64,000 bases of DNA, taken from Alphaproteobacteria bacterium (GTDB lineage: Bacteria > Pseudomonadota > Alphaproteobacteria > RF32 > CAG-239). Position numbers and translations under genes: made by a program. Within the stretch, counting starts at the first letter, position 1. Every line of letters starts with the position of its first letter. Below the pieces are notes generated by a model, which was not told where the DNA came from, searched no databases, and saw only the letters and a list, made by a program, of their open reading frames with translations. The DNA lies in NCBI GenBank assembly GCA_045644765.1, contig JAZRHM010000001.1, forward strand, positions 58,022-122,021. Reading direction: 5' to 3'. Below are positions 60,119-61,770 of this stretch, in pieces.

Positions 60119-60730
60119 CTAGAACCAAGAAAAACTAAACATTGATCCTTGCTTTTCATTATTTTGAACTTTGCACATATTGTAAATATTTTCCATTGTT
60201 AACGTAGCAAGACATATCCTTCCTTGTTTACAACCGAAATCACCATAATAGTTAGTTTGTCCTTTATCCGGATTTGTTACAGTCAGATAATGGATTTGTC
60301 CTCTATATTCTTTTGCCACATTAATCAAATTAACACAAATATCAAATCTGAAATTTGTATCTTCAACATAATATCTTAAGCCGAAATTATATGCACTTGG
60401 ATATTGGGTAGAACTGTCAAATCTGATATTTGAAGAAAAATTATCAACCACATAATTAGTTTTCTTATCATATCTGAAACCCTCAGGAACATATTTCAAT
60501 TTATCTAAAATTTCAGTTATATTTTCAGTTTTTAATGTTTTAATATTGAGGCTTGATGCAAAGTCTAGAGCATTTTGCAACAACATACTAAGCCCTTGTG
60601 ATTGAACATTAAGTTTATGTTTTTTCATCGCCTTAGAATATCCGGCAATAGCACCAACTGACAAAACGCCGATTATAGCAAGAACTCCTAACATTTCTAC
60701 CATTGATCTTCCGCTTTGTATTTTTTTCAT
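60119..60730 (-). CDS. Type IV pilin-like protein, paralog 3
   Basis: Short leader MKKIQSG then RSMVEMLGVLAIIGVLSVGAIAGYSKAM. C-terminal GDFGCKQGRIC...MCKVQ. RBS gaggtg. Confidence 0.6.
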   Translation of the reverse strand: MKKIQSGRSMVEMLGVLAIIGVLSVGAIAGYSKAMKKHKLNVQSQGLSMLLQNALDFASSLNIKTLKTENITEILDKLKYVPEGFRYDKKTNYVVDNFSSNIRFDSSTQYPSAYNFGLRYYVEDTNFRFDICVNLINVAKEYRGQIHYLTVTNPDKGQTNYYGDFGCKQGRICLATLTMENIYNMCKVQNNEKQGSMFSFSWF

Positions 60731-60808
60731 ATTTTACACCTCATGCATCAAGTATATAAAAAGTTCCACAATAAACATTAACCTTTCTGATTTATCCACA
60801 TACCGTTT

Positions 60809-60827
60809 TATAAACAGTCTGTTTATA
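60809..60827. promoter_or_regulatory. 19-bp perfect palindrome tataaacag-t-ctgtttata in the divergent intergenic region of pilin-like genes 3 and 4
   Basis: Seen directly. Candidate operator. Confidence 0.35.
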
Positions 60828-61107
60828 CAATCAAAGTAACAGATAATTATGCATATATTATTAATATGATAACAAACTATATATAGTCGAATATTTTGGA
60901 TTGTATATTAAGGTCTATTTAAATGTCATTACTGAATAAGAAAAAAATAAGCAAGCTAAAGTTGCTGTTTCTGAAATAAGAAAAGTTATATGTGACTTAT
61001 TTGTTTCTTTAAATATAACACATTGTTTTTATATCATAAATTTATTAACTTGCAAAATATATCAAAACAAATTAAAATAATACGTATTATATATATTTGG
61101 AGTTTTG

Positions 61108-61770
61108 ATGCAAATATTTACAAACAAAAAAAATATAAAGCATAATATTTTACGCCATGAAATCGGAAGAAGCATGGTAGAAATGCTCGGCGTATTGGCA
61201 ATTATAGGCGTTTTATCCGTTGGCGCCATAGCCGGCTATTCCAAAGCAATGATGAAACATAAATTTAATAAACAATCAGCTCAAATTTCATATATTTTAG
61301 ATTATTTGATTTTAAATTATACAACAAATTTAAAATTAGAAAATCATTCTGAGTTTCATTTAGGTCCTCTTTTAAGAAAACTTGGTATCATTTCACAAGA
61401 CATGATTAAACAAACAGATAAAACTTATAGCTACGACGTTTTCGGAACTAAAATAGGCATAGAAAATCATCGAGCCACAGACGGCGGAGGTATCGCGTTA
61501 GGTCTATATATAACTGACAGCCAATTATCTGTAGAAATTTGTCGCAATATTTTTATTATAGCAAAAGAAAGATCTAATGATATTGATCAGGTGATTATGT
61601 CTCGCAAATTAGGAACAGGATCTTCGACTGTCGTATCCAGACATTTTGGAGATAAACAACTAAATAAATCGTCTTATCTTAGAAATTTAACAATGAAAGA
61701 TATTTATAATGCCTGTGACATATGCCAAGATACAACTTCATGTACCGTAAATATTCTTCATGGCTATTAA
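61108..61770 (+). CDS. Type IV pilin-like protein, paralog 4
   Basis: RBS ggag. Leader MQIFTNKKNIKHNILRHEIG then RSMVEMLGVLAIIGVLSVGAIAGYSKAM. C-terminal CDICQDTTSC. Upstream TTGCAA(61050)-N17-TAAAAT. Confidence 0.6.
   Translation: MQIFTNKKNIKHNILRHEIGRSMVEMLGVLAIIGVLSVGAIAGYSKAMMKHKFNKQSAQISYILDYLILNYTTNLKLENHSEFHLGPLLRKLGIISQDMIKQTDKTYSYDVFGTKIGIENHRATDGGGIALGLYITDSQLSVEICRNIFIIAKERSNDIDQVIMSRKLGTGSSTVVSRHFGDKQLNKSSYLRNLTMKDIYNACDICQDTTSCTVNILHGY

Follow-up and report, generated by a model that had tools for sequence, protein, structure and literature searches.

Introduction

Type IV pilins are defined by an N-terminal signal of the form G↓F/M-T/S-x-x-E, the arrow marking the cleavage point. 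Here we describe four pilin-like genes, p1 to p4, in a 64-kb stretch of DNA (hereafter the window, meaning all 64,000 nucleotides analysed) from an Alphaproteobacteria bacterium (contig JAZRHM010000001.1, positions 58,022 to 122,021), together with the family to which they belong, in which the residue following the glycine is arginine. The closest described proteins are the type IVb pilins, among them TcpA of Vibrio cholerae, CofA of enterotoxigenic Escherichia coli (ETEC) and PilS of Salmonella Typhi and R64, which the family resembles in head topology and in its length of ~200 residues while sharing no significant sequence similarity with them. The mature length criterion for type IVb pilins is 180-200 residues (PMC3927602), and reports of type IVb pilus systems come mainly from Gammaproteobacteria (PMC6668835, PMC3927602), whereas the family belongs to an uncultured commensal alphaproteobacterial lineage. 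Type IVb leaders span 15-30 residues and those of the family mostly 5-10; three of the four window leaders have 7-10, and only that of p4 has 20. The first mature type IVb residue is Met, Leu or Val in place of Arg, and type IVb genes lie in a dedicated pilus operon with the peptidase, ATPase, platform and secretin, whereas the family genes are dispersed and multi-copy, those of the window being apparently monocistronic among housekeeping genes.

Type IVa pilins (PilA/PilE) share with the family a short leader ending in Gly, a Glu at position +5 and an AIIG(I/V)L core in the first helix (alpha1); where their N_methyl signal has Phe/Met-Thr, the family has Arg-Ser. The type IVa class combines a leader of <10 residues with a length of 150-160 residues and an N-methylated Phe, whereas the family, although mostly short in the leader, is ~40-50 residues longer and has a IVb-like head. 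The family is a hybrid class: IVb in size and topology, mostly IVa in leader length, and fitting neither in its first residue.

Two other groups are more distant. Tad/Flp pilins carry the signal G↓xxxxEY on a mature protein of 40-60 residues, unlike the ~200 residues of the family, in which Glu5 is followed by Met; no TadE Pfam match was found in the window proteins or in 40 family members tested. Planctomycetes, Verrucomicrobia and Lentisphaerae possess expanded, dispersed families with a prepilin N-terminus (DUF1559 / H-X9-DG). As far as we are aware these are similar in having many paralogs per genome among unrelated genes and a near-identical class III signal, and differ in their canonical G-F-T-L-x-E signal, an unrelated C-terminal domain and their phyla; among the members tested against Pfam, none matched DUF1559 / H-X9-DG at E <= 0.1.

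At a rough probability of 55%, we favor the reading that p1 to p4 and their homologs are true subunits of the type IV pilin superfamily, forming a hybrid class specific to this lineage, and would be processed and assembled by machinery encoded elsewhere.

Four intact genes with a shared N-terminal module

A six-frame motif scan of the window (33.6% GC) found exactly four copies of the N-terminal module, each inside an intact open reading frame (ORF). An earlier note, made from the sequence alone, had placed four such genes here, and the ORF list confirms its coordinates and strands:

33890..34519 (+): p1, pilin-like gene with a GTG start; 209 residues; leader MQLIKNNQT-G; 6 Cys; module at 33917-34021
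40520..41140 (+): p2, pilin-like gene, the most divergent paralog; 206 residues; leader MKLFKNNQY-G; 8 Cys; module at 40547-40651
60119..60730 (-): p3, pilin-like gene; 203 residues; leader MKKIQS-G; 4 Cys
60608..60712 (-): invariant N-terminal module of p3, G(-1) to N(+34), from alignments and positional conservation
61108..61770 (+): p4, pilin-like gene; 220 residues; 20-residue leader MQIFTNKKNIKHNILRHEI-G; 4 Cys
61165..61269 (+): invariant N-terminal module of p4, from motif scan and alignment

Starts were set by the position of the Shine-Dalgarno sequence (GTG 33890, ATG 40520, ATG 60730 and ATG 61108), giving leaders of 10, 10, 7 and 20 residues including the Gly for p1 to p4, in agreement with the 7-20 residues first reported. 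The divergent arrangement of p3 and p4 was likewise borne out, with 377 bp between them. In alignment the module common to all four covers 35 residues from Gly(-1) to about +34 and is almost identical, reading G-RSM(V/I)EMLGVLAI(I/V)GVLSVG(A/G/S)IAGYSKAMxK(H/Y)K(L/F)N, with Arg-Ser at +1/+2 just as the earlier note wrote it. The individual modules read GRSMIEMLGVLAIVGVLSVGSIAGYSKAM in p1, ...IIGVLSVGGIAGYSKAM in p2 and ...IIGVLSVGAIAGYSKAM in p3 and p4.

C-terminal to the module, each protein continues into a ~160-residue domain, and these domains are as divergent as first described, overall protein identity being 26-35% (alignment to p3). Lengths from G(-1) to the stop are 197-201 residues. 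Cysteine counts, which the note gave as 2-4 near each C-terminus, are in fact 6, 8, 4 and 4, all even, with an invariant pair corresponding to C132/C186 in p3; the ~160-residue head is predicted to contain disulfides, possibly including a C-terminal one of the D-region kind. Chance or an ORF artefact is ruled out as an explanation of these genes by the four intact ORFs with Shine-Dalgarno sites, thousands of homologs and selection at the protein level.

Conservation at the putative cleavage site

We profiled 183 distinct copies anchored on positions +8 to +17, with nothing upstream forced into alignment. The leader is unconserved, with an entropy of 2.6-3.7 bits at positions -11 to -2, and its length has a mode of 5-8 residues. 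Conservation then sets in abruptly: Gly(-1) and Ser(+2) are present in 183/183 copies, and Arg(+1) (the exception being Lys) and Glu(+5) each in 182/183. The sharp onset at Gly(-1), together with a Glu at exactly +5, points to processing by a prepilin peptidase and to packing in a filament core. It is our main argument for both steps, which we infer.

Identity of the module lies in the protein and not in the DNA. Over its 35 codons, pairs of window copies have 14-20 synonymous codon differences versus 2-6 non-synonymous ones, and over 111 copies amino-acid identity is 92%, with third codon positions 45% identical versus 89% at positions 1 and 2. Both codon families are in use for Arg (AGA and CGT) and for Ser (TCA and AGC). 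Because synonymous sites are near saturation while the protein is invariant, selection on the protein, rather than recent copying, keeps the module identical, and the third-position identity of 45% rules out recent duplication or gene conversion as the source of the identical N-termini.

The head is also constrained. The closest non-identical ortholog of p3 (database protein P0002, 82% protein identity) lies in a wholly different neighborhood, with DNA similarity limited to the coding sequence. Between the two heads the ratio of non-synonymous to synonymous substitution rates (omega) is ~0.09, compared with 0.02-0.05 for AdhE and NusA at similar divergence, all rough values because synonymous divergence is near saturation. 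This speaks against hypermutation or positive selection in the head; the variable major-pilin or adhesin repertoire, or secreted family, proposed in the earlier note is not established, and selection between p3 and this ortholog is purifying rather than rapidly diversifying.

A few copies depart from the signal (L158:23-958 and proteins P0267 and P0152; L numbers denote the loci of the sample described below): GKSMIEML with Lys at +1, YSRSMVEML with Ser in place of Gly(-1), and a degenerate TRRVMMELL copy. These may be natural tests of processing tolerance, or pseudogenes.

Predicted fold

An AlphaFold2 model of p3 built from a 121-sequence alignment (predicted local distance difference test, pLDDT, 85.6; predicted template modelling score, pTM, 0.78) has a helix from residue 11 to 58 (~48 residues) followed by a four-to-six-stranded alpha/beta head. 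A structure search with this model returned CofA (score 9.4, 150 residues aligned), TcpA (9.0, 154 residues aligned) and S. Typhi PilS (7.5), followed at 5.6-5.7 by other pilins and minor pilins (R64-type PilM, Clostridioides difficile PilA1, TcpB and CofB). Foldseek against the PDB gave TcpA and S. Typhi PilS as its only significant matches, with a probability of 1.00 each. For p2, whose head is ~10% identical to that of p3, the model was less confident (pLDDT 72.6); the order of elements was as in p3 and the top matches were the same (CofA 9.5, TcpA 9.4, PilS 6.2). As modelled, the family has a real type IV pilin fold, in which the ~20 hydrophobic residues of the N-terminus run on into an alpha1 of ~50 residues, with a IVb-like head. 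The earlier note's view of these proteins as pilin-like, drawn from Gly(-1), Glu(+5) and a hydrophobic alpha1, is upheld by two independent structure searches, and the structure predictions that it had called for, run on p3 and p2, yielded a type IVb pilin fold and not an unrelated one.

In sequence-profile searches N_methyl was matched in register, below threshold, by 40/40 members tested; p1 gave weak N_methyl and FimA matches; and the type IVb pilin family PilS_N (PF08805) matched weakly in 3/40 members, with a best E of 0.017. A profile search of the PDB aligned G↓RSMvE of the family to G↓FTLIE of a Geobacter pilin and, at E <= 1, found no type IVb pilin.

A large family of gut Alphaproteobacteria

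A database search with p3 found at least 7,928 proteins; among the 120 matches listed, all were full-length except two fragments and none had a Pfam domain. Scans of genomes and metagenomes confirmed at least 565 and at least 524 copies, respectively. The named records are metagenome-assembled genomes (MAGs) of uncultured Alphaproteobacteria from human, roe-deer and other guts, and seven related MAGs hold at least 8-16 copies each in the small part of each genome that was sampled. The "four-member family" of the earlier note is therefore four genes among at least 8-16 copies per related genome and thousands of database members. The seven MAGs have 41-43% GC against 33.6% in the window, which indicates that the window comes from a more AT-rich relative. 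An AT-rich, host-associated genome had been proposed, and the GC content agrees; the added description "Rickettsiales-like" finds no support, as the relatives are MAGs of uncultured gut Alphaproteobacteria of a free-living type, and LptD, SurA, LpxA and AdhE are encoded in the window.

To place the family among its neighbors we used a locus sample of 1.68 Mb, made up of 167 loci and the window and holding 1,593 genes in 874 families. The pilin-like family, with 219 full-length members and 213 motif copies, is the largest in this sample; the next largest has 11. Copies are mostly singletons, 14/17 close pairs are tandem, and the median length from G(-1) to the stop is 204 residues across the loci.

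Searched against 1.84 billion representative sequences, a profile of the head alone found only 393 clusters, and every full-length match carries the GRS module. That module and head always occur together favors a structural subunit over a generic export tag; a generic sorting tag on diverse cargo is ruled out, the module never occurring without the head domain in these clusters and loci. As far as sequence searches can see, the family is confined to this lineage. It is unannotated, and literature searches returned nothing under the motif strings and nothing relevant on RF32 genomes or pili.

Pilus machinery and competing explanations

Under our favored reading, prepilins would insert into the inner membrane with the N-terminus inside and the head in the periplasm, and an A24-type prepilin peptidase encoded elsewhere would cut between Gly(-1) and Arg(+1), as the abrupt onset of conservation suggests. 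Their identical alpha1 segments would allow all paralogs to pack interchangeably into the core of a filament or pseudopilus of one kind, assembled by a single machine encoded elsewhere; we hold cleavage at G↓R and such assembly to be about as probable as the reading as a whole. Arg1 could pair with Glu5 of the same subunit, one helical turn away, or with Glu5 of a neighbor, replacing the contact between the N-terminal amine and Glu5 of canonical pili. The divergent heads might, more speculatively, present different surfaces for adhesion or antigenic diversity.

Several observations weigh against this reading. We know of no characterised type IV pilin in which a charged Arg is the first mature residue. 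Many leaders lack net positive charge, so that Arg(+1) might instead set the positive-inside orientation of an anchor that stays uncleaved. The profile check suggested in the earlier note succeeded in part: both curated hidden Markov models match p1 to p4 at the N-terminus only, with scores under their cut-offs (Pfam PF07963 N_methyl, 13.1-16.3 bits against 21.2; NCBIfam TIGR02532, 10.3-15.2 bits against 16.3). Finally, motif scans of the window and 1.7 Mb of loci around ~213 copies found no PilB/GspE/CpaF-type ATPase of type IV pilus, type II secretion or Tad systems (Walker A, Asp box, His box and Walker B patterns), no GxGDxK motif of an A24 peptidase, no canonical G-F/M-T/S pilins, no gsp genes and no credible Flp/TadE pilin, the only Flp-pattern matches being four chance ones; the Pfam-annotated neighborhoods of family genes are all housekeeping. 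The lack of pilus machinery next to p1 to p4, already remarked on in the earlier note, thus extends to ~213 copies, within 10 kb, in the related loci, and no assembly ATPase, platform or secretin gene turned up there or among the 874 families of the sample. Since the 874 sampled families are perhaps half of a genome's repertoire, this absence is suggestive and not decisive. It is common for a prepilin peptidase gene to lie apart from the pilin genes, and one peptidase can serve more than one system (PMC6668835).

The substitution of an invariant Arg for the hydrophobic, N-methylated residue common to all characterised type IV pilins that we know of, combined with expansion into dozens of interchangeable, independently transcribed subunits sharing an identical core helix, may signify something new, either a new class of type IV filament, heteropolymeric or switchable, with an Arg1-Glu5 salt bridge in its core and a machine never adjacent to its subunits, or pilin folds at work without any type IV machinery; we consider this a tentative proposal, and rather doubtful.

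The strongest rival, which we think unlikely, holds that these proteins derive from pilins and are pilins no longer. In a lineage without type IV filament machinery, the module would be an uncleaved signal-anchor with Arg(+1) as its positive-inside residue, tethering a variable, disulfide-bonded periplasmic head to the inner membrane, and its extreme conservation would come from interaction with another membrane partner or from self-association in the membrane. This would account for the lack of machinery genes within 10 kb of ~213 copies or among the 874 sampled families, for the often uncharged leaders that leave Arg(+1) the sole basic residue before the hydrophobic stretch, and for Lys being the rare substitution at +1. 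However, the invariant Gly(-1) and Glu(+5) and the abrupt onset are the signature of prepilin peptidase and assembly, and a plain anchor needs neither residue; burying a Glu in a transmembrane anchor carries a cost unless the residue has a use; a full type IVb pilin head has been kept under purifying selection in hundreds of paralogs; and machinery was sampled in only part of each genome.

We regard as less likely still that the proteins serve a type II secretion-like system as subunits of the pseudopilin type or as displayed cargo, processed by a peptidase and then built into a short periplasmic pseudopilus or exported and displayed singly. Their many dispersed, individually transcribed copies are nearer to the expanded Planctomycetes, Verrucomicrobia and Lentisphaerae families than to a pilus operon, and one IMG record names a member "pseudopilin PulG". 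Like the pseudopilins GspG-K and E. coli PpdA-D, the family has a prepilin-type N-terminus and weak NCBIfam similarity over the first ~50 residues, to GspH, XpsH and prepilin peptidase-dependent proteins. Yet these scores are far under the cut-offs (GspH 17.1 bits against 80, XpsH 15.5 against 160), the head fold is that of the major type IVb pilins CofA, TcpA and PilS and not of GspG-K, the module is never joined to another cargo domain, no gsp operon or gene was seen in the window or loci, and the family comprises dozens of paralogs.

Silent cassettes for antigenic variation, that is, mostly unexpressed donors recombining through a conserved 5' module as in Neisseria pilE/pilS or the R64 PilV shufflon, would share with the family a constant pilin N-terminus and variable C-terminal parts and would fit copies at synteny breakpoints and closely related genomes with different types at the same place, but they are largely excluded: every window copy is complete and separately transcribable (start codon, leader, Shine-Dalgarno sequence and promoter-like site, with terminators in three), purifying selection acts on the head, the window genes have no flanking recombinase or inverted-repeat system, and the module shows no sign of gene conversion, its ~74% DNA identity and nearly saturated third positions making it ill suited to homologous recombination.

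Arrangement in related genomes

Genomes whose AdhE is 87-97% identical to that of the window carry unrelated family types (34-45% identical) beside adhE, and in L053 homology to the window ends precisely at the stop of adhE. The individual types are thus old genes under constraint, whereas their order along the chromosome is fluid. Synteny between related strains breaks at family genes (L082 versus L083; L053, L008 and L168 versus the window). Transporter genes and a transposase of the IS200 type (Y1_Tnp) take the place of the upstream sequence of a tandem pair in L083.

Many copies in the related MAGs, and none in the window, have a GC-rich compound palindrome directly upstream of the G(-1) codon, located as follows:

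L018:1-108: compound palindrome, related MAG
L047:1-122: compound palindrome, related MAG
L055:1-91: compound palindrome, related MAG
L023:1-225: compound palindrome, related MAG
L059:1-353: compound palindrome, related MAG
L066:1-147: compound palindrome, related MAG
L081:1-104: compound palindrome, related MAG

The element consists of TGTCA, a 7-8 bp hairpin and CCAGGT, then a ~24-nt spacer, then ACCTGG, a hairpin and TGACA; some copies have additional hairpins in tandem. Folded as RNA, the element would form three hairpins (z -3.2 to -5.5), the last holding GGAG before an in-frame TTG, with no Rfam match. From its layout it may be an element like repetitive extragenic palindromes (REP) or miniature inverted-repeat transposable elements (MITE), or a regulator in the 5' untranslated region. 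Among 114 genome-locus copies (L003-L166), 38 lie <500 nt from the start of the contig or locus with the 5' end of the gene facing it; short-read assemblies probably break at the upstream repeat. The repeat also accounts for two database artefacts, ORFs over-extended into false leaders of 40-100 residues and ORFs called from the internal Met (MVEML...).

Records titled "Lachnospiraceae bacterium" or "Bacteroidaceae bacterium" carry the family as well (L008, L020, L034, L044, L047, L048, L057, L062, L063 from CAVBCV01 and L068 from CAVKTH01). In CAVBCV01 it lies beside AdhE and NusA 88-92% identical to those of the window, and these labels look wrong or the bins contaminated.

Transcription units and surroundings of the window genes

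Each of p1 to p4 has its own promoter-like site, Shine-Dalgarno sequence and start codon, and terminator hairpins follow p2, p3 and p4. The features are:

33833..33860 (+): p1 promoter-like site TTGCAA-N16-TATAAT, read from the sequence, downstream of the ssb terminator hairpin at 33774-33793
33879-33883 (+): p1 Shine-Dalgarno sequence GGAGG, read from the sequence
40460..40486 (+): p2 promoter-like site TTGCAA-N15-TATAAT, read from the sequence, downstream of the pyrG terminator hairpin at 40398-40422
41146..41167 (+): terminator-like hairpin AGCCTCTGT-AAAG-ACAGAGGCT with T-run after p2, read from the sequence
60090..60107 (no strand): hairpin CGGCTCTT-TG-AAGAGCCG with flanking A and T runs between the adhE and p3 stops, read from the sequence and not flagged by the pattern scan; probably a bidirectional terminator
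60737-60742 (-): p3 Shine-Dalgarno sequence GAGGTG, read from the sequence
60753..60781 (-): p3 promoter-like site TTAATG-N17-TATATA, read from the sequence, a consensus match only
61050..61078 (+): p4 promoter-like site TTGCAA-N17-TAAAAT, a consensus match only
61099-61102 (+): p4 Shine-Dalgarno sequence GGAG, 5 nt before the ATG, read from the sequence
61844..61869 (+): intrinsic-terminator-like hairpin of 11 pairs with T-run, 74 nt after the p4 stop, from the pattern scan

Judged by these signals, p1 to p4 appear as four monocistronic transcription units. The -35 element TTGCAA is identical upstream of p1, p2 and p4; the promoter-like sites are matches to a sigma-70-like consensus only and are no commoner than shuffling predicts in this AT-rich DNA. 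When compared within the window, the regions upstream of the four genes do not align. Between p3 and p4, at 60809-60827 and ~80 nt upstream of where p3 starts, is a perfect inverted repeat with 9-bp arms, TATAAACAG-T-CTGTTTATA, possibly a p3 operator. The window has no second copy, and elsewhere the repeat occurs only in L001 and L002, which carry an identical p3 gene. Shared upstream regulatory DNA or an invertible promoter within the window was rejected, the upstream regions being unalignable and this 19-bp palindrome unique to p3. An Rfam search for known RNA elements gave tRNAs only.

We determined the gene content of the window by reading translations of ORFs of at least 110-130 residues, and every ORF of 60 or more residues was scanned for motifs. 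The first half holds what we take by eye to be LptD, SurA, KsgA, Nfo, ThrRS, an aminotransferase, Mdh/Ldh, LpxA, RecJ, UppP, XseA, DnaG, FtsEX and PlsC; around p1 and p2 are presumably SSB, Fmt, PpiD, TpiA, SecG, PyrG and UvrD; and in the second half we recognized, again by eye, MoxR, L10, L7/L12, nucleoside phosphorylases, GltB, AdhE, RimP and NusA. This gene set is ordinary for a diderm bacterium, and the translations agree with the first description of the pilin-like genes as embedded among housekeeping genes.

Three other window loci are recorded here. In the N-terminal part of the SurA-like protein at 1253-2452 (+), the peptide (Y)EEEM(Q/R)RRA is repeated in tandem ~6x (...EEEMQRRAYEEEMQRRAYEEEMQRRAYEEEMRRRAEYEEEMRKKAYEEEMRRRE...). 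A 676-residue protein at 46623-48653 (+), with no obvious housekeeping role, contains two blocks of leucine-rich-type short repeats (...GSFxCxxNxLTxLxGAPxxVGGxF...) and a very basic C-terminus; a surface or host-interaction protein is possible. At 24586-24999 and 25190-25888 (+), a small ORF precedes a P-loop protein resembling a zeta-toxin/AAA kinase (MSKQNWLVIIAGPNGAGKST...), and the two are possibly a toxin-antitoxin pair.

Biological significance

With its invariant G↓R-S-M-V-E, the family falls just under the thresholds of the curated models and is therefore missed by current annotation. Its size, by far the greatest of any gene family sampled in these uncultured Alphaproteobacteria of human and animal guts, suggests a prominent trait of the surface or envelope in unstudied commensals, with possible roles in adhesion, as phage receptors or in immune visibility. 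A first residue of Arg probes the tolerance of prepilin peptidases and of filament cores, and type IVb-like pilins are extended beyond enteric pathogens. If it is true that these genomes lack the machinery, the pilin fold would have been recruited to a different job.

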